Assembly (NCBI GenBank): GCA_035492455.1 | Contig: DATJJE010000078.1 | Location: 3,556-67,555, forward strand | Direction: 5' to 3' | Origin: Vicinamibacterales bacterium | GTDB lineage: Bacteria > Acidobacteriota > Vicinamibacteria > Vicinamibacterales > UBA2999 | Length of the DNA stretch: 64,000 nt | Translations under genes and position numbers: made by a program | The notes under the pieces: model-generated | Told to the model about the DNA's origin: nothing | What the model saw: the letters and a program-made list of their open reading frames with translations, nothing else | Databases searched by the model: none | In this document: positions 4,512 through 62,164 of the stretch, one piece after another | Layout: each line of letters starts with the position of its first letter | Position numbering within the stretch: position 1 is the first letter of the stretch

Positions 4512-4569
4512 GCGATTTGTGATTAATGATTCTTGATTTCAAATCACTAATCACAAATCAGCAATCACA
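4512..4569. repeat. inverted pair of 4x heptamer arrays (NTGATTN x4 / AATCANN x4), AT-rich hairpin
   Basis: GCGATTT GTGATTA ATGATTC TTGATTT c a AATCACT AATCACA AATCAGC AATCACA. 18-bp stem with one mismatch. Confidence 0.9.
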
Positions 4570-4879
4570 ACTGGATGTCGGTAATGCGCACGCGCGTGAA
4601 CGTGCTGCGGTGGCCGCGCGTTTTGCGAAACCCCTTGCGGCGCTTTTTCTTGAATACGCGCAGCTTCGGGCCGCGCGACTCGCCGTCGACAACGCCAACG
4701 ACCTTCGCGTTCGCCACAAACGGCGCGCCCGCGACGATATCGCCGGCGTCCTTCTCGACGAGCAGCACCTGCTCGAAGGTGAATTCCTTGCCCTGCTCGC
4801 CGGCGGTGCCGTCTACTTCGATGATGGCGCCGGGCGTGACCTTCACTTGGCGGCCGCGCGCCTGGATGATCGCGTACAC
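4565..4879 (-). CDS. rplU: 50S ribosomal protein L21
   Basis: MYAIIQARGRQVKV is the canonical L21 N-terminus. Gene order is rplU-rpmA-obg. Confidence 0.97.
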   Translation of the reverse strand: MYAIIQARGRQVKVTPGAIIEVDGTAGEQGKEFTFEQVLLVEKDAGDIVAGAPFVANAKVVGVVDGESRGPKLRVFKKKRRKGFRKTRGHRSTFTRVRITDIQL

Positions 4880-4899
4880 GTGATCCCTCTCAATCGCGT

Positions 4900-4921
4900 G
4901 GGCGGATCCAAAGACCCGCCC
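4900..4921 (-). terminator. GC hairpin after the lipoprotein gene and upstream of rplU (GGGCGG...CCGCCC)
   Basis: Stem GGGCGGaTC/GAcCCGCCC with a 4-nt loop. Stem sequence is similar to the hairpin at 4217-4238. Confidence 0.4.
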
Positions 4922-4964
4922 CTACACTATGTAGACAAAGGATTTATTCTAACAGCCCTGCCGG

Positions 4965-5873
4965 CTATTGCAAAAGGACTCGCGTCCCCTTGATTTTCTG
5001 GCTGCTGAGCGTGCTCAGGAAGCTCGGAATCAGCCGGTCCATCAACTCGAAATACGAAGACAGGGCCGGGGTGCTCTGATTGGCGTTATAGAGCACCTCC
5101 TCGCGAAAGTTCTCGGAGTGCATCACGGTGCCGGTGCGGCCGTCTATAAAGACGAACTTCGGCTGCAGGATGTAGCCTTTCCGCTCCATATAGGTCCGTA
5201 CGGGGACCACGCGCCGACGACCGAACGAGTCGTACACTTCTTCCTCGCGCTGGACGATGCCGGAGCGCTGGTGCGGCGTAAACATCACTGTACCCGTGAC
5301 GATCAGCGGGTTCTGATATTCCTCGCCGATCTTCTTCCAGTACTCGACGTCGGCGAAGACGTGCTCGTACGGTTCGAGGTCCTTGGCGTCCTTGATCGCC
5401 GCGGGCTTGTCGGGCGTAGCCGCCTGCGGCCCTTCGCCCTTCTCGCCCTTCTCGCCTTTCGACTCCGCCTTGGCTTCGCCTTTCGGCTCCGACTTGGCTT
5501 CGCCTTCGGCTCCGGAATTGTTGGACTTCACGGGCTCCGCTTTCGCTTCCTGCGGCGCGCTCTCCTGAGCGGCGACGTCCATCAGCGGGAGCACGTCGGT
5601 GTCAATGACGCGGAGATCGGATTTGGTGCGCAGCTGGCTGCGCAGCAAGCGGGTCGTCTCGAGGTTCCCGTCCACATCGTCGGTGCCCCCCGCGATGAAG
5701 CCGGCCACGAGCACGCGCTGAAACGCCGACACATCAAGCTTCGGCTTGATGGGCGTTTCGATAGGAATCTCGTAGTAGTTCGTGCAACCTGCGATGAACA
5801 GGATTGCGGCGACGCTGCTAAGGATTCTGGTTGTCCTGGCTGTCCTGCGTATCCTTGCGAGTCGTCCGGTCAT
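4965..5873 (-). CDS. hypothetical lipoprotein with internal Lys/Glu/Gly-rich repeat
   Basis: Lipobox-like ILFIAGC after a basic N-region, with an internal GEAKSEPKGEAKAESKGEKGEKGEG low-complexity block. No family recognised. Confidence 0.6.
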   Translation of the reverse strand: MTGRLARIRRTARTTRILSSVAAILFIAGCTNYYEIPIETPIKPKLDVSAFQRVLVAGFIAGGTDDVDGNLETTRLLRSQLRTKSDLRVIDTDVLPLMDVAAQESAPQEAKAEPVKSNNSGAEGEAKSEPKGEAKAESKGEKGEKGEGPQAATPDKPAAIKDAKDLEPYEHVFADVEYWKKIGEEYQNPLIVTGTVMFTPHQRSGIVQREEEVYDSFGRRRVVPVRTYMERKGYILQPKFVFIDGRTGTVMHSENFREEVLYNANQSTPALSSYFELMDRLIPSFLSTLSSQKIKGTRVLLQ

Positions 5874-7552: not shown

Positions 7553-10270
7553 ATGGCTAAGCCACTAGTGATCGTCGAGTCGCCAGCGAAGGCGAAAACG
7601 CTGGGCCGCTTCCTCGGGTCGAAGTACCGGGTGGAGGCGAGCTATGGCCACATTCGCGATCTGCCTGAGTCGGCGGCCGAGGTCCCGAAGGACATCAAGG
7701 ATAAGGAGTGGGGGCGGCTCGGCGTGGATGTCGAGAACGAGTTCACCCCCTATTACGTTGTTCCCAGCGACAAGAAGAAACAGGTCGCGCACCTCAAGAC
7801 CGCAGTAAAGGATGCGTCCGAGCTGCTGCTCGCGACGGACCCCGATCGTGAAGGCGAGGCTATCAGCTGGCACCTCACGCAGGTGCTGAAGCCGAAGGTC
7901 CCTGTCCGCCGCATTGTCTTTCATGAGATTACTGAAGACGCTGTCAAGGAGGCGCTCGATCACCCCAGCGCGGTGAACGAGGACCTCGTCCGCGCGCAGG
8001 AGAGCCGCCGCATTCTCGATCGCCTGTACGGCTACACGCTGTCGCCGCTCCTCTGGAAGAAGGTGCAGACGGGGCTCAGCGCTGGACGCGTGCAGAGCGT
8101 CGCCGTGCGTCTCATCGTCGAGCGCGAGGAAGAGCGGCGTGCCTTCCGTACGGCCATCTATTGGGATCTCGAAGCGAAGCTGCGCGGCGAGGGCCGTGAG
8201 TTCGTGGCGACGCTTGCGCGCATCAACGATCAGCGCATCGCAACGGGCAAGGACTTCGATGCGAAGAGCGGCGAGCTGAAGAACAACAACGTCCGGCTGC
8301 TCGACGAAGCGGCTGCGGGGACCCTCGCGCAGGCGACACGGTCGAACATGCCGTGGACCGTAACCGGCGTCGAACAGAAGCCTGGCGTCGAACGTCCGGC
8401 GCCGCCGTTCACCACTTCGACGTTGACGCAGGAGGCGAGCCGCAAGCTCGGATTCTCGACTGAGCGGACGATGCAGTCCGCACAGCGGCTGTTCCAGGGC
8501 GTGGACGTTGGCAACGATGAGATGGAAGGTCTCATCACCTACCACCGTACCGATTCGACGACGCTGTCAGACAAGGCGCTGCAGGAATCGGCGCGCGTCA
8601 TCCGGGAGATGTTCGGGGCGGAGTACTACGATGGCGCCCGCCGGTATCAAACGCGCGTGAAGAACGCGCAGGAAGCGCACGAAGCAATTCGTCCCACGGA
8701 CTTCCGCCTCGCGCCGAGCCAGTTGGAGCGCGTCCTCGATTCCGACGACCTGAAGATTTACGAGTTGATCTGGAAGCGCACGATGGCGTCGCAGATGGTG
8801 GACGCGCGCGTGCTGCGGACCACGATCGAGATCTCGGCGCGCGGTCAGGGCGGCGAGGTCGCGGTGTTCACGGCGAGCGGCAAGGCGATCGAATTCGCGG
8901 GCTTCCGACGCGCCTATGTCGAAGGCAGCGATGACCCCGTCGCGGAGCTCGAGGATCAGGAAACCATCCTGCCGCAGTGCAAGGTCGGCGATCAAATCGA
9001 ACGCGACGGTACATCAATCGTGTTGCTCGACACCGAGCCGAAGAAGCACGAGACGACGCCACCGGCGCGGTTCACCGAAGCGTCGCTCATCAAAGAGCTG
9101 GAGCGGCTCGGCATCGGCCGTCCATCAACCTTCGCGCCGACGATTGCGACGATCGTGCGCCGCGGATACGTGTTCCGTCAGGGCAAGGCGCTCGTCCCCA
9201 GCTTCACGGCGTTCGCCGTTACCAAGCTGCTGCGCGAGCATTTCGGGGACTTCGTCGAGACGGATTTCACCGCCGAAATGGAAGAGGACCTCGACGAGAT
9301 TTCGCGCGGCGAGCGTGAATGGATCGAGTTTCTGCGCGAGTTCTATTACGGCGACAAGAAGAAGAAGCACCGCGGTTTGCTCGGCGCGGTGGAGAAGGGC
9401 GAAGAGAACGCGGATTATCCGGTGCTGGACCTCGGAGAAGAGCCGGAGACCGGCGAGGCTGTTCGCATCCGCATCGGACGGTTTGGTCCGTTCGTGCAGG
9501 TTGCCGAAGGCGGACCCGGCCGGACGGCGTCACTGCCCGACGACCTCGCACCTGCGGACTTGACGGTGGACAGGGCGCTCGAGCTCGTTCGCGCAAAAGC
9601 TGAAGGACCGCGGTCCCTTGGCGTCGATCCAGCAACCGGCATGAACGTGTACGTGATGAACGGCCGCTACGGCGCGTACGTTCAGCTCGGCGAAACTCCG
9701 GAAGGGAAGAAGGCCGAGAAGCCGAAGCGCGCGTCGCTGCAGGCGGGGATGACCGAGCAGACGGTCACGCTCGACGAAGCGTTGACGCTGCTGTCGCTGC
9801 CGCGCGAGGTGGGCCTGCATCCGGACGACAACCAGCCGATCGTCACCAACTTCGGGCGCTTCGGTCCATACGTGAAGCACAACGACGAGTTCCGGTCGCT
9901 CGAATCCGACGACGATGTCTTCGGCATCTCGTTCGACAAGGCCCTCGAGCTTCTGCGTGCGCCGAAGCAATCGCGCCGTCGTCAGGCGACACAGAAAAAG
10001 ACGCTGAAGGAGCTGACCGCCAACGGCGCCACAATCAAGGTGCTCGCCGGTCGCTACGGTCCGTACGTCACGGACGGAACCACAAATGCGTCCGTGCCGA
10101 AGGGTTCAAACCCCGAATCCCTCACCTTCGAGCAAGCGATGGGGCTGCTCGAAGCGCGTCGCAACGCCGCACCCTCCCCGCGCCGCACGGCAGGCGGTCG
10201 AGGCCGGCGCGTGGCAGCTGCCGCTGTGCCCCGGGCCCGTAAGGCTTCCCGTAAAGCCGCGGGAGCTTAG
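7553..10270 (+). CDS. topA: DNA topoisomerase I
   Basis: TOPRIM N-terminus LVIVESPAKAKTLGRFLG, active-site region GLITYHRTDST, and a repeated C-terminal GRYGPYV/GRFGPFV domain. Confidence 0.97.
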   Translation: MAKPLVIVESPAKAKTLGRFLGSKYRVEASYGHIRDLPESAAEVPKDIKDKEWGRLGVDVENEFTPYYVVPSDKKKQVAHLKTAVKDASELLLATDPDREGEAISWHLTQVLKPKVPVRRIVFHEITEDAVKEALDHPSAVNEDLVRAQESRRILDRLYGYTLSPLLWKKVQTGLSAGRVQSVAVRLIVEREEERRAFRTAIYWDLEAKLRGEGREFVATLARINDQRIATGKDFDAKSGELKNNNVRLLDEAAAGTLAQATRSNMPWTVTGVEQKPGVERPAPPFTTSTLTQEASRKLGFSTERTMQSAQRLFQGVDVGNDEMEGLITYHRTDSTTLSDKALQESARVIREMFGAEYYDGARRYQTRVKNAQEAHEAIRPTDFRLAPSQLERVLDSDDLKIYELIWKRTMASQMVDARVLRTTIEISARGQGGEVAVFTASGKAIEFAGFRRAYVEGSDDPVAELEDQETILPQCKVGDQIERDGTSIVLLDTEPKKHETTPPARFTEASLIKELERLGIGRPSTFAPTIATIVRRGYVFRQGKALVPSFTAFAVTKLLREHFGDFVETDFTAEMEEDLDEISRGEREWIEFLREFYYGDKKKKHRGLLGAVEKGEENADYPVLDLGEEPETGEAVRIRIGRFGPFVQVAEGGPGRTASLPDDLAPADLTVDRALELVRAKAEGPRSLGVDPATGMNVYVMNGRYGAYVQLGETPEGKKAEKPKRASLQAGMTEQTVTLDEALTLLSLPREVGLHPDDNQPIVTNFGRFGPYVKHNDEFRSLESDDDVFGISFDKALELLRAPKQSRRRQATQKKTLKELTANGATIKVLAGRYGPYVTDGTTNASVPKGSNPESLTFEQAMGLLEARRNAAPSPRRTAGGRGRRVAAAAVPRARKASRKAAGA

Positions 10271-10273
10271 AAT

Positions 10274-10337
10274 GGCTTCAGGCTTCGGGCTGCAGGCTTC
10301 GGGAATTCTTCCGAAGTCAGGAGCCCCGAGCCCGAAG
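10274..10337. repeat. inverted pair of 4x heptamer arrays (GGCTTCN x4 / NCCGAAG x4); probable topA terminator hairpin
   Basis: GGCTTCA GGCTTCG GGCTGCA GGCTTCG ... TCCGAAG TCAGGAG CCCCGAG CCCGAAG. Fills the topA-trmFO spacer. Confidence 0.85.
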
Positions 10338-10342
10338 TCTTC

Positions 10343-11728
10343 ATGATTCACATCATCGGTGGCGGTCTCGCCGGATGCGAGGCTGCCTGGCAGGCTGCAT
10401 CGCTGGGCGTCCACGTGACGCTGCACGAGATGCGGCCGGTGTGCACGACCGCCGTGCACAAGACGGATCAGCTCGCGGAGCTGGTCTGCTCGAATTCGCT
10501 GCGCAGCGACAAGCTCGATAACGCGGTAGGCCTGCTGAAAGAGGAAATGCGGCGGCTCGGTTCGCTCGTGCTGCGCGCTGCCGACGCGAATCGCGTACCT
10601 GCCGGCGCAGCGCTCGCCGTCGATCGCGAGCGATTCTCGAGCGCCGTTACCGAGGCAGTCACTGCGCATCCGCTGATCGAGGTCACGCGCGAGGAGGTCC
10701 CGCGCATCCCGGACGATCCGGCAATGTATCCGCTGATTGTCGCGACCGGCCCTCTTACATCAGAAACGCTCTCCGCGGACGTTGCGCGGATCGTCGGTGG
10801 CGACCACCTTTATTTCTACGATGCGATCAGCCCGATCGTGCTGGCCGAGACCATCGACATGTCGAAGGTATTCCGCGCCTCGAGATGGGGTCGGGACTCA
10901 TTACGTGGTTCGTCGGACGGCGGCGATACGAACCACGTAATGAGTCCCGACCCCGTTGAAGGCGACTATCTGAACTGCCCGCTGACGAAAGACGAGTACG
11001 ACCGGTTCTACGATGCGGTCGTCACCGCAGAATCCGCCACGGTGCACGATTTCGACAAGGAAAAGTTCTTCGAGGGATGCCTGCCGATCGAAGTGATGGC
11101 GCATCGCGGCCGCGACACGCTCCGCTTCGGTCCGATGAAGCCGGTGGGGCTGATGGATCCACGCACCGGGCGTGCACCGTACGCCGTCGTGCAGCTGCGT
11201 CAGGATACGCTCGCCGGCGATCACTTCAGCCTCGTCGGATTTCAGACGCAGCTCAAATGGGGCGAGCAGGCGCGCGTGCTGAAGCTCGTGCCCGGCCTCG
11301 AGCATGCGGAGTTCGTCCGTTTCGGCATGGTGCACCGCAACACCTACATCAACGGACCGACGGTGTTGCGCGAGACGTGGCAGACCCGGTTCCGCGACGA
11401 TCTGTTCTTCGCCGGACAGATTTCCGGGGTGGAGGGATACGTCGAGTCCGCGGCGTCCGGACTGATCGCAGGCCGCAACGCGGCGGCGCTTGTGCGCGGC
11501 GAGGAGCCTCGCGTCCCGCCGCGGACGACGGCAATCGGGGCGCTGGCGTATTACGTCTCGCACGCGGATCCGCGGAATTATCAGCCGACCAACATCACGT
11601 TCGGCATCATGGAGGCGCCTCCGAACATCCGCAAGCGCGCGGATCGGAAGCTGGCGACGTCCACGAGAGCGCTCGAAGATCTGGACCGATGGAACAGCTC
11701 CGCGAGTTTCTCGACTACATCCGCCTGA
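10343..11728 (+). CDS. trmFO: methylenetetrahydrofolate--tRNA-(uracil-5-)-methyltransferase TrmFO, carrying an in-frame palindromic insertion
   Basis: FAD-binding IHIIGGGLAGCEAAWQAA, plus DYLNCPLTKDEY and GQISGVEGYVESAASG motifs. Confidence 0.92.
   Translation: MIHIIGGGLAGCEAAWQAASLGVHVTLHEMRPVCTTAVHKTDQLAELVCSNSLRSDKLDNAVGLLKEEMRRLGSLVLRAADANRVPAGAALAVDRERFSSAVTEAVTAHPLIEVTREEVPRIPDDPAMYPLIVATGPLTSETLSADVARIVGGDHLYFYDAISPIVLAETIDMSKVFRASRWGRDSLRGSSDGGDTNHVMSPDPVEGDYLNCPLTKDEYDRFYDAVVTAESATVHDFDKEKFFEGCLPIEVMAHRGRDTLRFGPMKPVGLMDPRTGRAPYAVVQLRQDTLAGDHFSLVGFQTQLKWGEQARVLKLVPGLEHAEFVRFGMVHRNTYINGPTVLRETWQTRFRDDLFFAGQISGVEGYVESAASGLIAGRNAAALVRGEEPRVPPRTTAIGALAYYVSHADPRNYQPTNITFGIMEAPPNIRKRADRKLATSTRALEDLDRWNSSASFSTTSA
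10887..10954. repeat. 68-nt perfect palindrome (26-bp arms, 16-nt loop) in frame inside trmFO
   Basis: GGGGTCGGGACTCATTACGTGGTTCG (10887-10912) is the exact reverse complement of 10929-10954. Confidence 0.95.
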
Positions 11729-12582
11729 ATCGCAACGCGTCGGCGCATACGGTCGCTGCCTACGAGAGCGATCTCACGCAATTTGTCGGCTTCGCCGGCG
11801 AATTCACCAGGAAGCGCGAGGCGCTTCGGCCCATCCATCTCGACCTCGAAGTGATTCGCGCGTTCCTCGGCGAGCTGCATCGCGAACGGCAGTCGCGCGC
11901 GACGGTGGCGCGCAAGGTCTCGGCTGTCCGCGCGTTTTTCCGCTACCTGCGGCGCGAAGGATTTGTTGAATCGGATCCTGCGGCACTAATCGTCGCACCG
12001 AAGCGCGAACAAAAGGTGCCCGCGCATCTCTCCGTCGACGAGATGTCGCACCTGCTCGACACACCGGGCGCGTGTTCGCCGCTCGGCCGCCGCGACCGTG
12101 CCATCCTCGAGCTGTTCTACGCGTCGGGGATCCGGTTGAGTGAGCTTGTTGGCCTCGATCTCGAGGATCTCGATCTGTCCGGACGGATGGTGCGGGTGAT
12201 GGGAAAGGGGCGCAAAGAACGGATCGTGCCCTTCAATCAGAAAGCGGCAGGCGCGTTGCGGGCGTGGCTGAAAGACCGTGTCGCGCTGACGCGCGGCGAC
12301 GCATTGTTCGTCAACGCCCGCGGTGGGCGTTTGACGGGCCGCAGCGTCCAGCGCCTCGTCGCCCGCTACGTGACCAGTTGCAGTACCCGGTTCGGCATCA
12401 GCCCGCACGCGCTTCGGCATTCATTCGCCACGCATCTGCTGCAAGCGGGCGCCGATCTACGTGCGATTCAGGAGCTGCTCGGACACGTGCGTCTCTCCAC
12501 CACACAGCGATACACTCACGTCAACGTCGCGCAGCTGCTCGAGGTCTATCGGAAGTCGCATCCGCGGGCACATAAATCCTAG
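11689..12582 (+). CDS. xerC: tyrosine recombinase XerC/XerD family
   Basis: ATG at 11689 (MEQLREFLDYIR...). Has the SAM-like N-domain and catalytic R...HxLRH...Y (HALRHSFATHLL, RYTH). The 5' ORF extension overlaps trmFO and is discounted. Confidence 0.9.
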   Translation: MEQLREFLDYIRLNRNASAHTVAAYESDLTQFVGFAGEFTRKREALRPIHLDLEVIRAFLGELHRERQSRATVARKVSAVRAFFRYLRREGFVESDPAALIVAPKREQKVPAHLSVDEMSHLLDTPGACSPLGRRDRAILELFYASGIRLSELVGLDLEDLDLSGRMVRVMGKGRKERIVPFNQKAAGALRAWLKDRVALTRGDALFVNARGGRLTGRSVQRLVARYVTSCSTRFGISPHALRHSFATHLLQAGADLRAIQELLGHVRLSTTQRYTHVNVAQLLEVYRKSHPRAHKS

Positions 12583-12591: not shown

Positions 12592-13959
12592 ATGTCGTTG
12601 CGCCGCTGGCTCGTCGTCGCGGCTCTTTTCGTCGTGGCGTTCGTCGCGTCAAGGTACGGACACGCCGCCGGCGACGCGACGGGCAGAAATCTGTTCACGT
12701 ATCCGTACAACGTTGACGATCTGCCGAACGGCCTCCGGCTCGTCACCGTGCCGACGGACTACCCGAACTTGGTGGCGCTCTACATCGTCGTTCGCGCCGG
12801 CTCCCGCGACGAGGTCGAGCCGGGCAAGAGCGGCTACGCGCATCTGTTCGAACACCTGATGTTTCGCGGCAGCGAAAACTTCACCCCCGAACAGCGTGAC
12901 GCGATCATGAAGGGTGCGGGCGCGGATACCAACGCATCCACCAACCAGGATCGAACGACGTACTACGTTGTGTTCTCGAAGGAAGACCTCGACGAGGTCT
13001 TCAAGGTGGAAGCGGATCGCTTTCAGCACCTGAAATACAGCGAGCCCGCCTACAAGACCGAATCGCTCGCCGTGCTCGGCGAATACAACAAGAACAGCGC
13101 GGCGCCGACACAGAAGCTTGATGAAGTGCTGTACGAAACCGCGTTCAAGGAGCACACCTACGCGCACACGACGATGGGGTATTTGAAGGACGTCCAGGAC
13201 ATGCCGAACCAGTACGGCTACAGCCTGGAGTTCTACAATCGGTTCTACCGCCCCGAGTACACGACCGTGCTTGTCGTCGGCGACGTCACGCACGATGGTG
13301 CACTGGAGCTGACGAAGAAATATTTCGGCGCGTGGGCGCGCGGCAGCTACGAGCCGAAGATTCCAGCGGAGCCGCCGCAGATGGAGAGCCGTACGGCTCA
13401 TGTTGACTGGCCGTCGCCGACGCTGCCATGGCTTGCCGTCGCGTTCAAAGGGCCTGCGTACTCGGACGAGACAAAGGACAAGCCCGCGCTCGACCTGCTG
13501 CGCGAGATTGCGTTCGGCGAAAACTCGGACCTGTATCGCCGGCTCGTGCTCCAGCAGCAGAAGCTCGACGATCTCGGCGTGGACTTTGGCAATCATCCGG
13601 ACCCCGAGTTGTTCACGGCGTACGCGCGCATCAAAGACGTGAAGGATGTCGATGACGTCCGCGCGCAGGTTCTCCAGACGTTCGCGCGGTTTACGAAGGA
13701 GAATGTCGATCAAACGAAGCTCGACGCGACGCGATCGCGCATGCGCTACAGCTTCGCACTGCGGATGAACAGCTCGCCGGCGATTGCGGCGGCGCTGGCG
13801 CCGTACATCCTGCTGAAGCGCACGCCGGACACGATCAACAAGGTCTTCGAGCTCTATCAGCAGGTCACACCCGAGGACATTCGCGCGACCGCGGCGAAGT
13901 ACTTCACCGAGAACAACAGGACTGTCGTCACGCTGGCGACACAGGCGGGGACGAAATGA
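12592..13959 (+). CDS. M16-family zinc peptidase (active subunit)
   Basis: Signal peptide plus the inverted zinc motif HLFEHLMFRGS (HxxEH). Confidence 0.85.
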   Translation: MSLRRWLVVAALFVVAFVASRYGHAAGDATGRNLFTYPYNVDDLPNGLRLVTVPTDYPNLVALYIVVRAGSRDEVEPGKSGYAHLFEHLMFRGSENFTPEQRDAIMKGAGADTNASTNQDRTTYYVVFSKEDLDEVFKVEADRFQHLKYSEPAYKTESLAVLGEYNKNSAAPTQKLDEVLYETAFKEHTYAHTTMGYLKDVQDMPNQYGYSLEFYNRFYRPEYTTVLVVGDVTHDGALELTKKYFGAWARGSYEPKIPAEPPQMESRTAHVDWPSPTLPWLAVAFKGPAYSDETKDKPALDLLREIAFGENSDLYRRLVLQQQKLDDLGVDFGNHPDPELFTAYARIKDVKDVDDVRAQVLQTFARFTKENVDQTKLDATRSRMRYSFALRMNSSPAIAAALAPYILLKRTPDTINKVFELYQQVTPEDIRATAAKYFTENNRTVVTLATQAGTK

Positions 13960-50482: not shown

Positions 50483-50516
50483 GCAATGACGGCCGCATAT
50501 ACTCGCGGGTAGCAGC

Positions 50517-51183: not shown

Positions 51184-52578
51184 ATGCGAATCGTGCTCGC
51201 GGATATCAGGGGAAGGGAAGGCTTCGTCAGCAAGGACACCGTCGCCGGCGGCTATGGCTCGCGGCTCCGTCCTTTTTCGAAGGTGACACGTATTGTGGCC
51301 CGCCTGAAGCGTGGCTTCCACGATTTGCCGAGCGTGCACCTGGCGTATGCCGCGGCGCTTGCCCGTCGCGCCGGCCACGAGGTGATCGCGTCCGAAGGCG
51401 AGCTCGTTGACGGCGACGTCGCGATCGTGCTCTCGTCGCTGGTCGACTACCGGCGCGAGACGGCGTGGGCGTGCTCGATGCGCGCGCAAGGCGTTCGCGT
51501 GGGCTTCATCGGTCTCGCCGCGCAGAAGCTGCCGCAGCTGTTTGCGGATGCCGCCGACTTCATCGTCAGCGGCGAGCCCGAAGCTGCGCTGATGCGTGTG
51601 ATGGCAGGCGAGACGCTGGCCGGCATTGTCAGAAGTCCAGAGATTCAGGATCTCGACGCCCTGCCGTTTCCCCTCTGGGGTCCGCTCGTCGGAAATCGCC
51701 GGCGCTGGCAGGTGCCATTTGCAGGCCGACCCATCGGCGGCGCGCTCCCCGTGCTCGCGTCGCGCAGCTGTCCGGAGTTCTGCACCTACTGTCCGCACCG
51801 CATCCAATCCAGCTATCGCACACGGTCGGTGGCCAGCATTGTCGAAGAGCTGGCGTATCTCGAAGACACTCACGGGTCGCTACACATCGTCTTCCGTGAT
51901 CCGTTGTTCTCGAACGATCGCCATCGCGTTCGCGAGCTGTGCGATCGCATACGCACGCGCGGCCTGACGCACACCTTCGAGTGCGAGACGCGGCTCGATC
52001 GCCTCGATCAGGAGCTGCTGGGGACGATGCACGCTGCCGGGCTGCGCGCCATCAGCTTTGGCGTCGAGGCGCTCTCCGACGAAACGCTGAAGAAGGTCGG
52101 TCGTCGTCCGACTCCGCACGGACACCAGCGCACCATCCTGGCACGCTGCCGCGAGCTCGGTATCGTCACCGCCGCCTTCTACGTCATCGGGTTCCTGGAC
52201 GATACGCGCGAGTCGATCAACGCGACCATCGAGTACTCAGTCGATCTCGGTTCGACGGTCGCACAGTTCAAAATTCTCACGCCGTATCCGGGCACGCCGC
52301 TCTACGGCCGAATGAAGGACGCGATCGTCGAACGCGATTGGGAACGGTTCGACGGCTTTACGCCGACCTTTACGCACCCGACGCTCTCGGCCGACGAGCT
52401 GCAGCTGCTGCTCGGCAGTGCTTACACGCGTTTCTACGTGCGCCCGTCGTTTCTGGCGAACTACCTGCGCATCTCCACACCGATGCTGCATCGCGTGGTG
52501 CGCTCGCTCGACCGCCGCGTCGAACGGCGGCACGCGCGGCGGCAGGAGGCGCTGATCGCGAGGGAGGTCGCATGGTGA
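51184..52578 (+). CDS. B12-binding-domain radical SAM protein (class B)
   Basis: GGAGG sits 9 nt before the ATG at 51184. N-terminal Rossmann-like B12 domain, CPEFCTYC (CxxxCxxC) at 51769-51792, TIM-barrel core. Confidence 0.88.
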   Translation: MRIVLADIRGREGFVSKDTVAGGYGSRLRPFSKVTRIVARLKRGFHDLPSVHLAYAAALARRAGHEVIASEGELVDGDVAIVLSSLVDYRRETAWACSMRAQGVRVGFIGLAAQKLPQLFADAADFIVSGEPEAALMRVMAGETLAGIVRSPEIQDLDALPFPLWGPLVGNRRRWQVPFAGRPIGGALPVLASRSCPEFCTYCPHRIQSSYRTRSVASIVEELAYLEDTHGSLHIVFRDPLFSNDRHRVRELCDRIRTRGLTHTFECETRLDRLDQELLGTMHAAGLRAISFGVEALSDETLKKVGRRPTPHGHQRTILARCRELGIVTAAFYVIGFLDDTRESINATIEYSVDLGSTVAQFKILTPYPGTPLYGRMKDAIVERDWERFDGFTPTFTHPTLSADELQLLLGSAYTRFYVRPSFLANYLRISTPMLHRVVRSLDRRVERRHARRQEALIAREVAW

Positions 52579-54403: not shown

Positions 54404-54461
54404 TCGCTCGCCCGCAGATGGGCAGCGACGAGGGCTATCGCAACGGCCCCGCAGACGATCG

Positions 54462-54758
54462 TCACGAAAGCAGGGAAGAGCTCGAAGAAGAGCATGAAGA
54501 TCCTGTCCAGATAGGAATTCCCGCCGTCTCACGATCCAGTTTCAGCATCGTCAGCAGCGCGAACTCTGTTGCGGTTTCAAACGAGAGATCGAGGATGACC
54601 ATCGCCGGCCGCTCACGCTTGATGCGGCTGTAAGCGGTGGCGGGCGACTCGAAGACCGCGACGTCGATATCGGGGTAGCCGAGAAGCATGGCGAGCGCAT
54701 CGCGCTCTGGGTAATTGGTCACGACCACCGCCGTCCGTCCCGCGAGTGTTGTTGCCAT
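54462..54758 (-). pseudogene. truncated receiver (REC) domain, possibly a decayed response regulator
   Basis: AVVVTNYPE...PAMVILDLSFE...AGIPIWTGS covers beta1-beta4 of a CheY fold. It lacks the N-terminal acidic pair and the beta5 Lys, and ends in a Ser-rich low-complexity tail. Confidence 0.4.
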
Positions 54759-54831
54759 CGACGACCTCCGCATGCCTCTACGGCAAGGACGATGCCGACA
54801 GCATGTGGGGTGATTCGGCGCGGATCCCGCG

Positions 54832-55164
54832 GTGGACGCGCTGCGCTGCCCTCGGGAGCGTCCACACACTCTGCGCATGGATGCGCAGGTCGCTCAGCCA
54901 TCACGCCTGGGCGCGTGGCGCACCACGAGGTTTCATGGCCATTTCCATGCGAAAGCACCTTGGCGCGCCGTTCAGACTTACGGGTTCCTCGACGCACTCG
55001 GACCGGCTGACTCGCGCCAGACCTCCATTCGGCATCGCCATCCGATCGACTGGCTGTTCGCGAGGGACATCGGCCTCACGCGCGGCCGCGTGCAGCGCGT
55101 GGAACGGGTGTCGGATCACTTCCCGTTGACCGCGACGCCTGACCTTTCTCACGAGGAGCGCTGA
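54832..55164 (+). pseudogene. remnant of an endonuclease/exonuclease/phosphatase (EEP) family gene
   Basis: Only the last ~45 codons look like the EEP C-terminus (FLDALG...HPIDWLFARD...VSDHFPL). The upstream part has no recognisable EEP motifs in any frame. Confidence 0.35.
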
Positions 55165-55207
55165 TGGACATCGCGTCCGTGGCTGATCTACAGTGCTCTT
55201 TAACTAA

Positions 55208-57171: not shown

Positions 57172-58190
57172 TGATGCACCCGCGGAAGTTGGCAGTTGGA
57201 AGGTGGGCGTTGGCAGTTTGCGTCGCGCTGGCGGCCTGCAACCGCGCCGAACAACCAGACGCATATGGCAACGTCGAAGCAACCGAAGTCATTGTCTCGT
57301 CGGAAGTGGGCGGACAGCTGACGACGTTTGCCGTCGAAGAAGGGCAGATGCTCGCAGCCGGCGAAAAGGCGGCGACCGTCGATCCAACACAGCTGACGTT
57401 GCAGCGCGACCAGGCCGCCGCACAGCGTGAGACGGCAGCGTCGCGCGCCGGCGAGATCAACAGCCAGGTGCAAGCGTTGACCGCGCAGCGCGAGGCGCTG
57501 GAGGCACAGCGGCAATCGTCCATCGCGCAGCGAAGCGCGCTGCAGGCGCAGCTGGAGATTGCGCAGCGCAACCTGGAGCGCACTCAGCGCCTCTCTGCGG
57601 CGCAGGCGGCGACCACGCAGCAGCTCGATCAGGCCGAGCGCGACGCGCGCGTGCTGCAGGAGCAAATCAAAGCGCAGGACCAACAGATCGCGGCGCAGGC
57701 CCGGCAGGTCGCCGCTCAGAACGCGCAGGTCGCGGCGGCACAGCAGCAGCACCGCACAGCGCAAACGCAGATTGCTGCCGCCGATGCGCAGGTGGCACAG
57801 CTCGACGACCGCATCCGCCGCACCGCGGTCACCAATCCAAGTGCCGGGACCGTGCTCGTCACCTACGTGAAGCGCGGCGAGATCGTGCAGGTCGGCCAGC
57901 CGCTCTACAAGATTGCCGACATGGGCGCCGTGGACGTGCGTGCTTATGTCACCGAGCCGCAGCTGGCGGACGTGAAGATCGGCAAGCAGGCGCGCGTCAC
58001 GCTTGACGCCGGCGACAATCACCCGACGCTGAGCGGAACGGTGTCGTGGGTGTCGGCGCAGGCCGAGTTCACGCCCACACCGATCCAGACGCGCGATGAG
58101 CGCGCGGATCTCGTCTACGCGGTCAAGATTCGCGTCGCCAACCAGAACGGTGTGCTGAAGGTCGGCATGCCGGTGGACGTGGATTTCTGA
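57168..58190 (+). CDS. HlyD-family membrane-fusion protein
   Basis: Lipobox-like ALAVCVALAAC, biotinyl-like lipoyl motif, long Gln/Ala coiled coil, and C-terminal beta-barrel (...PVDVDF). Confidence 0.9.
   Translation: MMMHPRKLAVGRWALAVCVALAACNRAEQPDAYGNVEATEVIVSSEVGGQLTTFAVEEGQMLAAGEKAATVDPTQLTLQRDQAAAQRETAASRAGEINSQVQALTAQREALEAQRQSSIAQRSALQAQLEIAQRNLERTQRLSAAQAATTQQLDQAERDARVLQEQIKAQDQQIAAQARQVAAQNAQVAAAQQQHRTAQTQIAAADAQVAQLDDRIRRTAVTNPSAGTVLVTYVKRGEIVQVGQPLYKIADMGAVDVRAYVTEPQLADVKIGKQARVTLDAGDNHPTLSGTVSWVSAQAEFTPTPIQTRDERADLVYAVKIRVANQNGVLKVGMPVDVDF
57188..57222. repeat. 5x heptamer array GTTGGCA GTTGGAA GGTGGGC GTTGGCA GTTTGCG
   Basis: Encodes LAVGRWALAVC of the HlyD signal/lipobox region, just after the TolC/HlyD overlap. 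Confidence 0.85.
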
Positions 58191-59149
58191 TGGACGCGAT
58201 CAAAGCAGAAGCGCTCGAGAAACGATTCGCGACGACCGTCGCCCTCGACAAGGTGTCGTTCACGATCGACCAAGGCGAGCTGTTCGGCTTCATCGGCCCC
58301 GACGGCGGAGGTAAGACGACACTGTTTCGCATTCTCGTCTCGCTGCTCACGCCCGACGCGGGTCGAGCGCAGGTGCTCGGTTTCGACGTCGTCCGCGACT
58401 ATCGTGCGCTGCGCCTGCGCGTCGGCTACATGGCCGGCCGCTTTTCGCTCTATCCGGATCTGAGCGTCGAGGAAAACCTCACCTTTTTCGCGTCCGTTTT
58501 CGGCACGACTGTCGAGCGCGAGTACGCGCAGATCGAGCCGATTTACGCGCAGCTCGAACCATTCCGCAACCGCCACGCGGGCGCGCTCTCCGGCGGCATG
58601 AAACAGAAGCTCGCGCTCTGCTGCGCGCTCGTGCATCGGCCCGACGTGCTCTTTCTCGACGAGCCGACGACCGGCGTGGACGCCGTCTCGCGCCGCGAGT
58701 TCTGGGATCTCCTCGGCGTGCTCAAACAAGGGGGCCTCACGACCGTCGTGTCGACGCCGTACATGGACGAGGCGACGCGCTGCGATCGCGTGGCGTTGAT
58801 GCATCGCGGGAAGCTGCTCGGCCTCGATGCGCCGTCCGGCATCATTGCCGCATTCGATCGGCCGCTGCTCGGAGTGCACGCGGCGCAGCGCTACAAGGCG
58901 CTGCTCGCGCTGCGCACGTACGAGCACGCCCAGAGCGCCTACCCGTTCGGCGACGTCCTCCACTACACAGACGCGCGAACGGATCTGCCCGCCGAGGCGA
59001 TTGGAGCGGACATCAAGCGATTCCTCGACGCGAGTGGTTTCAGCGACGCCTCGGTTGAACCGTTGACCCCCACGGTCGAAGACAGCTTCATCGCCCGCAC
59101 CGAATCGGATCCTGGATCCCGGACCCCGGATCCCGGGAGACTTCAGTGA
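58190..59149 (+). CDS. ABC transporter ATP-binding protein (YbhF-like, first ATPase)
   Basis: Walker A GPDGGGKTT, signature LSGGMKQKL, Walker B LFLDEPT. Confidence 0.93.
   Translation: MDAIKAEALEKRFATTVALDKVSFTIDQGELFGFIGPDGGGKTTLFRILVSLLTPDAGRAQVLGFDVVRDYRALRLRVGYMAGRFSLYPDLSVEENLTFFASVFGTTVEREYAQIEPIYAQLEPFRNRHAGALSGGMKQKLALCCALVHRPDVLFLDEPTTGVDAVSRREFWDLLGVLKQGGLTTVVSTPYMDEATRCDRVALMHRGKLLGLDAPSGIIAAFDRPLLGVHAAQRYKALLALRTYEHAQSAYPFGDVLHYTDARTDLPAEAIGADIKRFLDASGFSDASVEPLTPTVEDSFIARTESDPGSRTPDPGRLQ
59107..59134. repeat. 4x heptamer array GGATCCT GGATCCC GGACCCC GGATCCC
   Basis: Encodes the C-terminal tail DPGSRTPDPG of the first ABC ATPase, 12 nt before the GTG of the second. Confidence 0.88.
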
Positions 59150-59925
59150 GCGACCTCGCCATCCAGGTGAAGGACCTGACGCGCCGCTTCGGCGACTTCA
59201 TCGCCGTCGATCGCATCTCGTTCGAGGTGAAAGAGGGCGAGGTGTTCGGATTTCTCGGCGCGAACGGGGCGGGAAAGACGACCGCGATTCGCATGCTCAT
59301 TGGCTTGCTGCAGCCGACCGGCGGTAGCGCTCGCGTCGCGGGATACGACGTCGCTACGCAGGCCGAGCAGGTGAAGCGCAGCATCGGCTACATGAGCCAG
59401 CGCTTCTCGCTCTACGAAGACCTGACGCCGCGCGAGAACATCCGCCTCTACGGCGGCATCTACGGACTGACGCGCGAGCAGATTCGTACCCGCACGGCGC
59501 AGATGCTCGACCGTCTTGGTATCTCGAGCGTCGCCGACACCGCCGTGCGCAGTCTGCCGCTCGGCTGGCGGCAGAAGCTGGCGTTCTCCGTGGCCCTGGT
59601 CCACCAGCCGCGCATCGTCTTTCTCGACGAGCCGACCAGCGGCGTCGATCCCATCACGCGCCGCCAGTTCTGGGAGCTGATTTACGACGCCGCCGCGAAC
59701 GGCACGACCGTACTCGTGACCACGCATTACATGGATGAAGCGGAGTACTGCGATCGCATTTCGATCATGGTGGCAGGACGCATTGCTGCGATGGGCGCGC
59801 CCATGCAGTTGAAACGCGACAGTCAAGTCGCCTCGATCGACGAGCTGTTCGTACAACTCGCGCGTCCCGACGGTCCCACTCGGCCCACCCGCCCCTCCAG
59901 CCCTTCCGGCGAGGGATCGCGATGA
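59146..59925 (+). CDS. ABC transporter ATP-binding protein (second ATPase)
   Basis: Walker A GANGAGKTT, signature variant LPLGWRQKL, Walker B VFLDEPT. GTGA overlap. Confidence 0.93.
   Translation: MSDLAIQVKDLTRRFGDFIAVDRISFEVKEGEVFGFLGANGAGKTTAIRMLIGLLQPTGGSARVAGYDVATQAEQVKRSIGYMSQRFSLYEDLTPRENIRLYGGIYGLTREQIRTRTAQMLDRLGISSVADTAVRSLPLGWRQKLAFSVALVHQPRIVFLDEPTSGVDPITRRQFWELIYDAAANGTTVLVTTHYMDEAEYCDRISIMVAGRIAAMGAPMQLKRDSQVASIDELFVQLARPDGPTRPTRPSSPSGEGSR
59877..59912. repeat. 4x 9-nt array CCCACTCGG CCCACCCGC CCCTCCAGC CCTTCCGGC (C-run rich)
   Basis: Encodes PTR PTR PSS PSG in the tail of the second ABC ATPase. Confidence 0.8.
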
Positions 59926-61034
59926 CCGCCCTGGGCGGTCTTCTTCGTAAGGAATGGTTCCACATCCGGCGCGATCGCCGCACCGCTACGGTGTTGATTG
60001 CGCTGCCTGTCGTGCAGGTGCTGCTCTTCGGCTATGCCATTCGTACCGACGTGGACAACGTGCGGCTTGCGGTGGTCGATCCGGCGCCGGATGCGCAGAC
60101 GATCTCGCTGCGCAACCGCTTCGCCGCGGCCGACGTGTTCCGCACCGTCGCCGTCGTGCCGCGCATCACCGACCTGGATCCGCTGTTCGAATCGGGCGCC
60201 GCGCAGCAGGCGATCGTCTTCTATCCGGGGTTCAGCCGCGACCTCGGCAGAGGTGAACCGGCGAAGCTGCTGATCATCACCGACGCCACCGAGCCGAACA
60301 CTGGCAGCCTGCTGCAGTCGTACGCGCAGGCTGTCGTGAATCAGTGGGTGGGTGGGGCGAGTAGGGCTGGTGGGGCTGGTGGGGGCGTCCGCATCGTTCC
60401 GCAGGTGCGGATGCGTTTCAACCCGACGCGCGAGAGCAAGAACCTGTTCGTGCCGGGCCTGATGGCATTTGTGCTGACGATCATCTCGTCGATGATGACC
60501 GCCATCTCGCTCACGCGCGAGAAAGAGACCGGCACGATGGAGGCGCTGCTTGTCTCGCCGCTGCGTCCATGGCAGATCATCGTCGGCAAGGTCACGCCCT
60601 ACCTGGCGATCGGCTTCGTCAGCGTGGTCCTCGTCATCGTCGAAGCCTTGCTCGTCTTCCATGTGCCGCTGCGCGGCAGCGTCCCGCTGTTGCTCGTCGA
60701 GGGCGCGCTCTACATCCTCGTGTCGCTCTCGCTCGGCATCCTGATCTCGGCGCGCACCTCGTCGCAGCGTGTCGCCATGATGTTCGCGCTGCTCGGCACG
60801 ATGCTTCCCAACATCCTCCTCTCCGGCTTCATCTTCCCGCTCGAGAGCATGCCCTCGGCGCTGCAGGCCATTTCCTACGTGGTGCCGGGGCGCTGGTTCG
60901 TCACCATCGCGCGCGGCATCATGCTGAAGGGGATCGGCTTCGAATACGTCTGGCGCGAAACGCTGTTCCTGGCGGCCATGGCGGCGGTGCTGCTAGCGGC
61001 CAGCGTCCGCTCCTTCAACGAGCGGCTGGAGTAG
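59922..61034 (+). CDS. ABC-2 type transporter permease (YbhS-like)
   Basis: N-terminal transmembrane segment, large loop, then 5 transmembrane segments; EKETGTMEALLVSPLRPWQII motif. Confidence 0.9.
   Translation: MTALGGLLRKEWFHIRRDRRTATVLIALPVVQVLLFGYAIRTDVDNVRLAVVDPAPDAQTISLRNRFAAADVFRTVAVVPRITDLDPLFESGAAQQAIVFYPGFSRDLGRGEPAKLLIITDATEPNTGSLLQSYAQAVVNQWVGGASRAGGAGGGVRIVPQVRMRFNPTRESKNLFVPGLMAFVLTIISSMMTAISLTREKETGTMEALLVSPLRPWQIIVGKVTPYLAIGFVSVVLVIVEALLVFHVPLRGSVPLLLVEGALYILVSLSLGILISARTSSQRVAMMFALLGTMLPNILLSGFIFPLESMPSALQAISYVVPGRWFVTIARGIMLKGIGFEYVWRETLFLAAMAAVLLAASVRSFNERLE
60344..60388. repeat. G-run-rich 9-nt array (GTGGGTGGG TGGGGCGAG TAGGGCTGG TGGGGCTGG TGGGGGCGT), G-quadruplex-type motif
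   Basis: Six runs of 3 or more G within 40 nt on the coding strand. Encodes WVGGASRAGGAGGG in the permease loop. Confidence 0.8.
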
Positions 61035-61036
61035 AC

Positions 61037-62164
61037 ATGCGGCGCATCCTGTATCTCGCGCAGGCCGAAGTGCTGCACATCCTTCGCGACCACATCCTGC
61101 TGGCGCAGGTGCTGGTCGTCCCCGTCGTGCAGCTTCTGGTGCTGACAAACGCCGCCACCTTCGAGATCCGCAACACGCCGATTCACATTGTCGATCTCGA
61201 TCGCTCTCCCGCCTCGCGCGGTGTCGTCAATCGGCTGGCGGCCAACGGTCATTTCGACATCGTCGATACCACACCGTCGGTCGACGTCGGTGACGACCAT
61301 CTGCTGCGCGGTACGGCAACGATGATCGTCGTCATTCCCCGGCACTTCGAGGAATCGATCGTGCGCACCGGCGTCGGGCAAGTGCAGCTTTCGGTCAATG
61401 CGGAAAAGGGATCGGCGGCGGGGATCGTTCAGTCGTATGCGACGCAGGTGTTGACGGATTACGCTGCTTCGCTTCGGCCTGTAGACAACGAATCCCGCAT
61501 CGCGGATGCCGGATCCCGACCGCGCATCGAGGTACAGGCGCGCAGCAGATACAACCCGACGCAGAACTACAAGCACTACATGGTTCCGGGCATTCTCGTC
61601 GCGCTGATGACCATCATCGGCACGCTGCTGAGCGCGCAGAACATCGCGCGCGAGAAGGAGCTCGGCACGCTCGAGCAGCTGAACGTGACGCCGATCACGA
61701 GAGGGCAGTTCATCATCGCCAAGCTGCTGCCGTTCTGGGTGCTGGGACTCATAGAGCTGTCGCTCGGTCTTCTCGTCGGCAAGCTCGTATTCGGCATCCC
61801 GATGGTCGGCAACCTTGCGCTGCTGTACTGCGTTGCGGCTGTCTATCTGGCGGTTGCCGCCGGCATCGGCCTGTGGATCTCCGCCATCGTGGACACCCAG
61901 CAGCAGGCGATGTTTGTCACCTTCTTCATCGTCAACATCTACCTGCTGATGAGTGGCCTGTTCACGCCCATCGACAGCATGGCGCCGTGGGTGCAGAAGG
62001 TCACGATGATCAACCCGGTGCGTCACTTCGTGACGATTTCGCGGGCGATTCTGATGAAGGGCGCGGGGCCGGCCGAAATCGCGCAGCCGTTCCTGATTCT
62101 GCTCGGCACGGCGGCCGTCGTTCTCGTCGTCGCCGTCGGTCAATACCGCAAGCGAGCGGCGTAG
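61037..62164 (+). CDS. ABC-2 type transporter permease (YbhR-like)
   Basis: ATG at 61037. EKELGTLEQLNVTPITRGQFI motif and the same topology as the preceding permease. Confidence 0.9.
   Translation: MRRILYLAQAEVLHILRDHILLAQVLVVPVVQLLVLTNAATFEIRNTPIHIVDLDRSPASRGVVNRLAANGHFDIVDTTPSVDVGDDHLLRGTATMIVVIPRHFEESIVRTGVGQVQLSVNAEKGSAAGIVQSYATQVLTDYAASLRPVDNESRIADAGSRPRIEVQARSRYNPTQNYKHYMVPGILVALMTIIGTLLSAQNIAREKELGTLEQLNVTPITRGQFIIAKLLPFWVLGLIELSLGLLVGKLVFGIPMVGNLALLYCVAAVYLAVAAGIGLWISAIVDTQQQAMFVTFFIVNIYLLMSGLFTPIDSMAPWVQKVTMINPVRHFVTISRAILMKGAGPAEIAQPFLILLGTAAVVLVVAVGQYRKRAA
61491..61518. repeat. 4x heptamer array AATCCCG CATCGCG GATGCCG GATCCCG
   Basis: Lies in the periplasmic-loop codons of the second ABC-2 permease (ESRIADAGSR) and shares GGATCCCG with the array at 59107. 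Confidence 0.78.

Follow-up and report, generated by a model that had tools for sequence, protein, structure and literature searches.

The 64-kb stretch of DNA analysed here (the window) belongs to a Vicinamibacterales (Acidobacteriota) lineage, an uncultured soil group, and its gene junctions carry short arrays of tandem 7-nt and, less often, 8-nt units, most of which occur in inverted pairs. The typical element is a hairpin with a 20-30 bp stem in which each arm is made of three to four tandem units, and paired elements fill the spacer between two consecutive genes. What these elements are and where they are located can be described with high confidence. For their origin, a composite account in which arrays grow in place, the arms are mirrored and the products persist through folding was judged to have about an even chance of being correct.

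Excess of period-7 and period-8 arrays

Arrays were detected with Tandem Repeats Finder (TRF) and with a self-match scan at lag p over 21 comparisons, and the window scan was controlled with 40 dinucleotide-preserving shuffles at thresholds of at least 15/21 and at least 16/21 matches. At period 7, the window gave 14 regions against 1.68 expected at the lower threshold and 9 against 0.38 at the higher one. Period-7 arrays were called by TRF at 4540-4570, 10274-10300, 18929-18966, 19113-19138, 31836-31860, 36092-36121, 36133-36157, 38268-38283, 40267-40295, 43843-43871, 57187-57218 and 59106-59136. Periods 4, 5, 10 and 11 were at or below expectation, and period 8 was near it (2 vs 1.45). The excess at period 13 (5 vs 1.18 at 15/21) was gone at 16/21, periods divisible by 3 were elevated through codon periodicity, and the count for period 14 (11 vs 1.25) was largely a harmonic of 7.

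A BamA search of species-representative genomes gave one relative, a Vicinamibacterales metagenome-assembled genome (MAG) with 77% identity, and a metagenome scan gave 39 additional contigs; contigs from relatives are denoted by L-numbers (L001, L042 and so on). The close set comprised 29 contigs with a BamA identity of at least 60% (283 kb), and the distant set comprised 11 contigs at about 40% identity (122 kb). The sequence available amounted to approximately 560 kb and covered two genomic neighbourhoods only. In the close set, 93 arrays of period 7 were observed vs 2.7 expected and 32 of period 8 vs 1.6, and periods 4, 5, 10, 11 and 13 were at or below expectation. The excess was much weaker in the distant set (6 vs 0.7 for period 7 and 3 vs 1.2 for period 8). 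Array density in the clade was roughly 20-30 per 100 kb, and arrays were found at orthologous positions in independent JGI, ENA and NCBI assemblies. As the excess recurred in relatives and in independent assemblies, it was concluded that the feature is real and clade-wide.

A sequence-only reading of the window had proposed recurrent period-7 arrays, and the counts from both the window and the close relatives bear this out. Approximately 10 of the 13 loci that it listed were well supported; the tracts at 40257-40298 (14/21) and 61491-61518 (15/21) were marginal, and the one at 48654-48681 was undetected. The 9- and 15-nt arrays that it regarded as related turned out to be a mixed set, as the one at 30424 is an arm of a long hairpin (30428-30545) and the one at 60351-60384 is an ordinary 9-nt coding repeat.

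Position and hairpin architecture

Among 112 non-redundant arrays, 92% lay within 120 nt of a predicted gene boundary, compared with 23% of random positions. Boundary and intergenic DNA contained 80 arrays of period 7, 26 of period 8, 8 of period 9, 3 of period 6, 1 of period 5 and about 0 of periods 10-13, whereas gene interiors, with three times as much DNA, contained 6 of period 7 and none of period 8. The concentration at gene boundaries and in tolerant protein segments that had been read from the window was thus confirmed. Moreover, a reverse-complement partner was present within 200 nt for 79% of the arrays, many of the counted arrays being orthologues of a few loci, against 2.7% for distant control segments. 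Inverted partners had been named at two loci only, so the dominant architecture had been missed; pairing is the rule.

In paired elements, the left arm starts at the upstream stop codon or a few nt from it, and between the end of the right arm and the next start codon there are 0-15 nt, unless the arm includes that codon. The stems are typically built of 5-6-bp blocks with single mismatches between the blocks at the variable position of the unit. In the window, fold z-scores ranged from -2.9 to -7.5 for paired elements and from about 0 to +1 for unpaired tracts.

Stems abut or overlap both the stop and the start codon at three window junctions, rplU-rpmA, topA-trmFO and accB-tamB, all with TRF support. 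In the case of rplU-rpmA (4503-4570, minus strand), each arm holds four heptads, in the sense direction TGATTNN x4 followed by AATCANN x4. This hairpin extends from the rplU stop codon to about 15 nt short of the rpmA ATG and folds with -27.9 kcal/mol (z -6.4; 4499-4570, minus strand), and the corresponding spacers of L042 and L043 are plain non-periodic hairpins. The topA-trmFO pair (10274-10337, plus strand), (GGCTTCR)x4 / (CYCGARS)x4, fills the distance from the topA stop to the trmFO ATG; its stem, which consists of 5-6-bp blocks parted by single mismatches, folds with -43.9 kcal/mol (z -7.5; 10271-10342). In the accB-tamB pair (36087-36159, plus strand), (TKCAAAA)x4 / (TTTTGMA)x3-4, the accB stop codon TAA lies inside the left arm and the tamB TTG start inside the right arm (z -2.9; 36090-36160).

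A period-8 hairpin, of a class that the earlier reading did not list, was found at 43202-43252 (plus strand; TRF 43211-43227), 25 nt past the bamA stop. It is composed of CACAGAGG x2 and CTCTGTGN x2 on the stem base ACGGGCC..GGCTGCGT and folds with -34.3 kcal/mol (z -4.7; 43198-43256); the orthologous hairpins after bamA in L006, L010, L014 and L018 are longer, with 25-31 bp. A pattern search gave a half copy of the same octamer family, CACRGAGR, in the hslV-hslU spacer (27107-27159, plus strand; right arm CTTCGTGTCTCCGTGGTTTGTG). The long hairpin at 30428-30545 (plus strand, 118 nt), located 3' of a sigma-54 activator gene, has arms GCCACAGAGGACACGAAG and CTTCGTGGCCTCTGTGGC that are related to the octamer family. 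It folds with -49.3 kcal/mol (z -4.9), and its orthologue in L017 has arms of 9-nt period.

Unpaired tracts

The unpaired tracts encode tolerant protein segments, namely signal peptides, linkers, surface loops and C-terminal tails. Those of the window at 31832, 40254, 57168 and 59100 are unstructured, and the tracts in the ABC-F gene and of the CCACCAC type belong to the same class. In the ABC-F gene (18929-19144, minus strand; TRF, scan and Pfam), three adjacent period-7 tracts at 18929-18966, 19021-19064 and 19071-19144, which read as CTTGGAN type on the plus strand, lie in the disordered linker ahead of the C-terminal coiled coil of the ATPase. The linkers of orthologues contain other units (TTGGGAT, GGGATTC and GGGGATC), L044 has none, and the protein length is 656-684 aa. 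An array of (TTGGNNG)x4 at 31835-31866 (plus strand; TRF) makes up the entire stop-to-ATG spacer 5' of the transaldolase gene and includes Shine-Dalgarno-like GGAAG and GGGGG; it has no structure (z +0.3).

The remaining tracts all lie on the plus strand. The weak CTTC-type tract at 40257-40298 (TRF score 30) encodes the core of the BamA signal peptide, LLYLLLTSTFLLPISAWA, and the same position in relatives is the right arm of a (AAAATKC)n element (family A, below), which codes signal peptide as well. At 43835-43877, a CCACCAC-type array (TRF) encodes a C-terminal tail rich in Pro and Thr in the gene that follows bamA; this gene and an alcohol dehydrogenase gene are convergent. Relatives have an (AGCAGGC)n/(ACTGCCC)n element of 3-12 units (family C) at this tail position. 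The GTTGGNN x5 array at 57182-57222 (TRF, 15/21, Pfam) covers the n- and h-regions of the signal peptide of a HlyD-family lipoprotein, KLAVGRWALAVCVALAAC, and is without structure (z +0.4). The array of (GGATCCC)x4 at 59102-59142 (TRF, 18/21) encodes the tail SDPGSRTPDPG of the first ABC ATPase and ends 8 nt before the next start codon. Homologues of this ATPase either lack the tail (306-308 aa, ending ...ARTEEAA) or have SDPGSRIPDPG-type tails of variable length (319-345 aa), and in TrmFO of L041 a surface loop is encoded by (GGATCCC)x5 read in frame. A weak tract inside the ABC-2 permease (61487-61520; 15/21, TRF negative) is marginal. The array claimed in a lipoprotein signal peptide (RFGTWALGFG, 48654-48681) was detected by neither TRF nor the lag-p scan and is without statistical support.

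The gene contexts assigned earlier, that is, the rplU-rpmA, topA-trmFO and accB-tamB spacers, the BamA, HlyD and lipoprotein signal peptides, the ABC-F linker and the C-terminal tails, were reproduced with Pfam and direct translation. The periodicity is also, as had been argued, one of DNA and not a peptide repeat; translated through all three frames, a 7-nt unit yields peptides of seven residues, for example DPGSRIP.

Unit families across loci

At least ten unit sequences occur within the 64 kb, and none dominates. The view that every locus has a different unit was not upheld, as the families AAAATKC, octamer CACRGAGR, GGATCCC/GGGGATC and GGCTCAN recur across loci and genomes and TTGG-type units are present at three window loci.

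Family A, the (AAAATKC)n inverted pair, is located at the tamB-bamA junction in nearly all close relatives and also at accB-tamB. At bamA, its loop contains the start codon and its right arm codes the signal-peptide core; the right arm reads TTTTGCA there and not TTTTGAA, because TTTTGAA would introduce TGA or Glu codons. Conservation of the family A arms at bamA is much higher than neutral evolution would leave, with a conserved mismatch in each unit, and it suggests that bamA may be under specific translational control.

As a separate observation on this junction, the BamA start of most relatives (ATG TGG TAC GAC AAC GGG...) sits in the family A hairpin loop (equivalents of window 40190-40320; L013 6128-6264), with an A-rich left arm in place of a Shine-Dalgarno sequence and a U-rich right arm as the signal-peptide core. 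In the window itself, the family A element at bamA has been lost, and the CTTC-type tract is found instead.

Family B, the octamer CACRGAGR with the non-periodic stem base ACGGGCC..GGCCCGT, is present 3' of bamA and at the junction between the response regulator and histidine kinase genes (RR-HK) of L001, L008 and L011. L007 and L008 have nested copies in their tamB-bamA region, the octamer family occupies at least four junction types overall, and its copy number is 2-3 per 64 kb. GGATCCC/GGGGATC units were found at many loci, both coding and non-coding, including GGATCCC at L001 12171, L018 15199 and 16239, and L041 4997, and GGGGATC x8 with GGGATTC x4 in the ABC-F linker of L042 (18608-18712). 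GGCTCAN occurs at two L042 junctions.

The histidine kinase of L001 (12945-13420) contains approximately 420 nt more than the window at 47876-47896, possibly an additional sensor domain, and this extra segment includes an in-frame inverted heptamer pair (CAGGGAT x4 / CCCGATC; 13192-13274). Furthermore, other spacers around rplU-rpmA-obg (window 4207-4240 and 4880-4964; L042 4188-4226) carry plain GC hairpins that follow one pattern, GGGCGGGTC..loop..GAYCCGCCC, which suggests that the clade has additional, non-periodic families of junction hairpins.

Turnover at orthologous junctions

When the window was compared with L001 by blastn, the alignment broke exactly at the array-bearing junctions. 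In the case of accB-tamB, the stop and start codons overlap (GAGTGAATTAC) in five contigs, and eight contigs have family A elements of 60-131 nt, the left end of which (GTAATTCA) is the reverse complement of the native TGAATTAC. The topA-trmFO junction is empty in L044 (15 nt) and holds a plain GC hairpin in L043, a short GGCTT..AAGCC hairpin seed in L041, a (GGCTTCR)x4 pair in the window and a (GGCTCAN)x4 pair in L042. Similarly, the RR-HK junction consists of 3 nt in the window, contains one unit (TCCCGGT) in L013/L014 and five units in L018, and has other arrangements elsewhere. The orf-tal spacer measures 10 nt (L003), 18 nt (L021), 37 nt with a CTGGAA seed (L017) or 39 nt, and the family C element ranges from 3 to 12 units across relatives. 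All intermediate states are thus preserved among the relatives. The succession of empty junctions, single 7-nt units or plain small hairpins, and full arrays points to arrays that grow in place and are in some cases copied to other loci. Several arrays matched period 14 better than period 7 in TRF, which is consistent with growth by doubling.

Over a short time scale, the arrays were stable. No indels of +/-7 nt were found in arrays between contig pairs of 99.2-99.8% identity (about 900 bp of arrays in the 99.8% pairs), and array substitutions in near-identical pairs were only about 2x the background rate.

RNA-level signal

For elements with co-directional flanking genes, in 28 of 37 cases the sense strand had a more stable fold than the antisense strand, the mean difference being 4.7 kcal/mol, and stem mismatches were G-U in the sense strand 80 times vs A-C 37 times. 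With orthologues included in the counts, this strand asymmetry and G-U bias are supportive, not decisive, of a constraint at the RNA level. In individual folds of the accB-tamB hairpin, the variable position of the unit could be G-C or U-A, but many mismatches were seen as well, so that this evidence is suggestive only; a formal covariation analysis of this hairpin is unreliable because MAFFT slips register in the repeats.

A search of the window with Rfam at gathering thresholds and a tRNA scan gave no matches, and the hairpins are therefore not a described RNA family. In a terminator and promoter consensus scan of the window from 30 to 50 kb, the paired hairpins at 36087-36159 and 43202-43252 were not among the hits, and two hits at 43835-43854 fell on the unpaired CCACCAC tract and were not above shuffles. 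Since no U-tract or T-run follows the right arms and a start codon lies within 0-15 nt, the elements are not canonical intrinsic terminators.

Origin of the arrays

According to the composite account, a local seed of 7-8 nt would be duplicated in tandem by replication slippage that favours steps of 7-8 nt, possibly through successive doublings, as the period-14 substructure suggests. New units would then appear as mirror copies in the opposite arm, through template switching within the molecule or because pairing is selected for; units would be homogenised within an element, and hairpin modules may occasionally be copied to other junctions. In an operon junction, an insert that folds on itself would keep the stop codon beside the next start codon at the stem base, so that translational coupling would survive, and the stem may double as an mRNA stem-loop. 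Inserts that do not fold would be tolerated only in freely variable protein segments.

Several points weigh against this account. The absence of unit changes between near-identical strains means that any slippage must be slow. The recurrence of unit families at unrelated loci fits a model of mobile elements as well or better. At bamA, the conservation of the family A arms and of the mismatch in each unit hints at a more specific function. Moreover, the figures of 79%, 28/37 and 80:37 are not independent observations, because orthologues of a few loci were counted repeatedly, and the in-house gene caller relies on codon usage, so that predicted starts are partly biased away from arrays.

The main rival is that the elements are mobile palindromes resembling repetitive extragenic palindromic (REP) sequences or miniature inverted-repeat transposable elements (MITEs), whose families were moved to junctions by a transposase encoded elsewhere, for example a tyrosine transposase of the RAYT (REP-associated) or TIRYT type. 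Each unit family would be a miniature, non-autonomous element with arms that happen to be tandem repeats; the differences between arrays would then reflect independent insertions and partial deletions. This possibility is doubtful but deserves serious weight. The octamer family, with its conserved stem base, its spread over four or more unrelated junction types and its nested and half copies, behaves as such an element would, as do family A at two junctions and GGATCCC and GGCTCAN at several loci. The accB-tamB and RR-HK junctions show clean presence and absence, the ends of family C carry GTAG, insertions that keep the frame of a gene recall intragenic REPs and the palindromic elements of Rickettsia, and tyrosine transposases flanked by terminal inverted repeats (TIRs) have been reported in Acidobacteria (PMC3733652). 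However, element ends inspected by eye showed no target-site duplications, and filled and empty accB-tamB sites differ without a direct duplication of the kind expected for MITEs. The loops between arms differ among loci, only the unit type being kept. An inspection by eye of element ends for the GTAG/CGTC tags found GTAG only in family C, the (AGCAGGC)/(ACTGCCC) element; families A and B and the window pairs had neither, so most elements are untagged. No transposase gene was found in the window by Pfam. Furthermore, the unpaired arrays have no inverted repeat, and neither the single-unit and seed states nor the series of 3-12 units is expected from transposition alone.

A bolder reading was considered improbable. 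It supposes a lineage-specific process with a 7-8-nt ruler that builds and mirrors palindromic hairpins at junctions, perhaps by structure-specific nicking and fill-in or by a template-switching polymerase acting on small stem-loops. Its products would be a new class of self-assembling element, neither transposon nor ordinary microsatellite, which the cell would use for translational coupling or mRNA processing.

Still less credit was given to arrays of binding sites, either for an RNA-binding regulator, which has been proposed for the TAACTGA repeats, or for a ribbon-helix-helix protein on tandem 7-8 bp sub-sites. Ribbon-helix-helix operators consist of tandem sub-sites of 7-8 bp in direct or inverted order, as in the contiguous WATCACW heptads, seven or more in number, of the omega repressor and the 8-bp metboxes of MetJ. 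The two periods found here equal that spacing, and the four plus four heptads at 4512-4569 are close to AATCACW (units at 4542-4569), which resembles the omega heptad; they lie inside the rplU-rpmA operon, with no ribbon-helix-helix gene adjacent. The highly conserved bamA family A arms with their asymmetric mismatch would also suit a binding site, and many arrays are directly upstream of start codons, as are the TAACTGA repeats of other bacteria (PMC4679880). Against this, at least ten units in 64 kb would call for many factors or for one that is nearly non-specific, the arrays are inside housekeeping operons and not at promoters, adjacent regulator genes are absent, and the same process has filled coding linkers and tails, where binding is irrelevant.

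Contingency loci, in which frequent changes in unit number would switch genes or shift the frame, are very unlikely. A 7-nt unit does alter the reading frame, some arrays are found in the 5' coding part of genes for envelope proteins (BamA, HlyD and lipoproteins), and unit number differs among diverged relatives. However, the 99.8% identical pairs had no +/-7 indel, with substitutions at about twice background. Each array consists of just 3-5 imperfect units, the majority are hairpins between genes of housekeeping operons (rplU-rpmA, topA-trmFO, accB-tamB), and essential genes such as bamA would be inactivated. Phase variation was rejected on the constancy of unit number between nearly identical strains. 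Finally, an artefact of codon usage, low complexity or assembly errors, to which only the tracts at 48654, 61491 and 40257, at or near noise level, lend any colour, has a negligible probability and is refuted for the whole set by the 8- to 35-fold excess over dinucleotide shuffles, specific to periods 7 and 8, and by recurrence at orthologous positions in independent assemblies from different projects.

Comparison with known repeats

The short tandemly repeated repetitive (STRR) sequences of heterocystous cyanobacteria, STRR1-3, are a few consensus units shared genome-wide in long direct arrays. They had been named as the closest analogue and, sharing tandem 7-nt units with the arrays in both the TRF calls and the scans, are a fair one: both are tandem heptamers, mostly outside genes or at their edges, with many copies per genome and no established function. 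In contrast, the present arrays comprise at least ten units per 64 kb, 3-5 units per arm, mostly inverted pairs and a period-8 class, and they occur in the phylum Acidobacteriota. The host is not a heterocystous cyanobacterium; its closest genome is the Vicinamibacterales MAG, and a homologue is labelled Vicinamibacterales/Acidobacteria by its source.

The suggestion that GC-rich lineages outside the cyanobacteria lack an equivalent is contradicted by published cases, namely GGGAATC in Xanthomonas (PMC4692102) and TAACTGA in Beggiatoaceae and Bacteroidetes (PMC4679880). Heptamers are over-represented across bacteria, and an origin by polymerase slippage has been proposed (Mrazek et al. 2007, as cited in PMC4692102). 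The Xanthomonas GGGAATC and Nostoc GGGGAYT arrays are intergenic, occur between the same genes in related species, vary in length and sequence, and are in some cases inverted (Rehm et al. 2015, PMC4692102). With these GGGNATC-type repeats the present arrays share a GC-rich host, intergenic enrichment, a place between the same genes of related species with extensive variation in length and sequence, some inverted pairs and, in L042, GGGGATC/GGGATTC units. The unit GGATCCC at window 59102-59142 is a related arrangement, and most window units do not fit. Xanthomonas has one dominant G-rich unit with a proposed G-quadruplex, whereas most units here are not G-rich and stop-to-start duplex hairpins dominate.

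TAACTGA direct repeats are known from marine Beggiatoaceae, some cyanobacteria and Bacteroidetes (MacGregor 2015, PMC4679880). They resemble the present arrays in having 2-6 heptamer copies per set, mostly a few nt upstream of start codons and including ribosomal-protein operons. That system uses a single unit genome-wide, in direct order with one inverted case, whereas many and mostly inverted units are found here, and TAACTGA is not among the arrays listed in the window and relatives.

REPs are palindromes in extragenic DNA to which a role as RNA hairpins is ascribed, and TIR-associated tyrosine transposases occur in Acidobacteria (PMC3733652). Like REPs and their paired forms (REPINs), the present elements are short palindromes in intercistronic or 3' regions that are plausibly transcribed into stem-loops, are occasionally intragenic and dispersed, and vary in presence between relatives. 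With their z-scores of -2.9 to -7.5, the intercistronic hairpins are imperfect extragenic palindromes in the REP sense (20-40 nt). REPs differ in being a fixed 20-40 nt sequence with an unpaired GTAG/CGTC tag in hundreds of copies, many of them RAYT-linked, whereas the arms here are periodic, the units variable and mostly untagged, and copies per family apparently low, with no RAYT gene seen in the window. No description of heptamer arrays for Vicinamibacterales was found when the literature was searched for Vicinamibacter or Luteitalea repeats. The novelty lies in several traits together: many unit types, hairpins of inverted pairs as the rule, a class with period 8 and a visible growth series.

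Other features of the window

The window genes identified with Pfam are chromosomal housekeeping genes: lysA, tmk, rsfS, nadD, obg, rpmA, rplU, dprA, topA, trmFO and xerC, and further hslVU, transaldolase, acyl-CoA carboxylase subunits, tamB, bamA, two-component systems and an OEP-HlyD-ABC exporter. The order topA-trmFO-xerC (7553-12582) resembles topA-gid-codV of Bacillus; M16 peptidase genes follow xerC, and hslV-hslU (26579-28554) is located 14 kb away from this group. Gaps of 570-800 nt with a GC content of 0.63-0.72 were left by the gene caller at 1456-2097, 48642-49215, 50450-51192 and 54404-55207. In relatives, a minus-strand phosphoribosyltransferase gene occupies the place of the first, and the second is a lipoprotein open reading frame (ORF) at 48638-49219.

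A 24-nt tandem repeat at 5452-5514 (2.7 copies, 92% match) codes an 8-residue repeat and is unrelated to the heptamer arrays. Its host ORF (4965-5873, minus strand, 302 aa) has no Pfam match and lies beside a TPR protein. Repeats of 21-nt period occur at 57672-57737 in the HlyD-family gene and at 58512-58557 in the ABC ATPase gene; with a period of 3 x 7, they may represent former heptamer triplets that became fixed in frame, or simply code for heptad coiled coils.

Implications

To our knowledge, neither the mechanism nor the function of the heptamer repeats over-represented in many bacteria has been established. The present clade is unusually informative in this respect, since its arrays are dense, its period spectrum is narrow (7, then 8) and intermediate stages are kept at orthologous junctions.

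The finding also concerns the annotation of Acidobacteria MAGs, in which gene callers read through arrays and produce false N-terminal extensions and variable tails. Public calls for homologues of window 10343-11728 (TrmFO) and 58190-59149 (ABC ATPase) vary in length, from 436 to 508 aa and from 306 to 345 aa, respectively, largely because ORFs are extended through arrays. Some ATPase calls open with repeats such as GPAKAGPYEAGPYEAGPYE; starts of the GPAKAGPYEAGPYEAGPYE type are probably the array of the HlyD-ATPase junction and not real N-termini.

Thus, the generation of such repeats becomes testable in this clade, and so does the question of whether stop-to-start hairpins generally allow compact operons to absorb insertions while translational coupling is kept.

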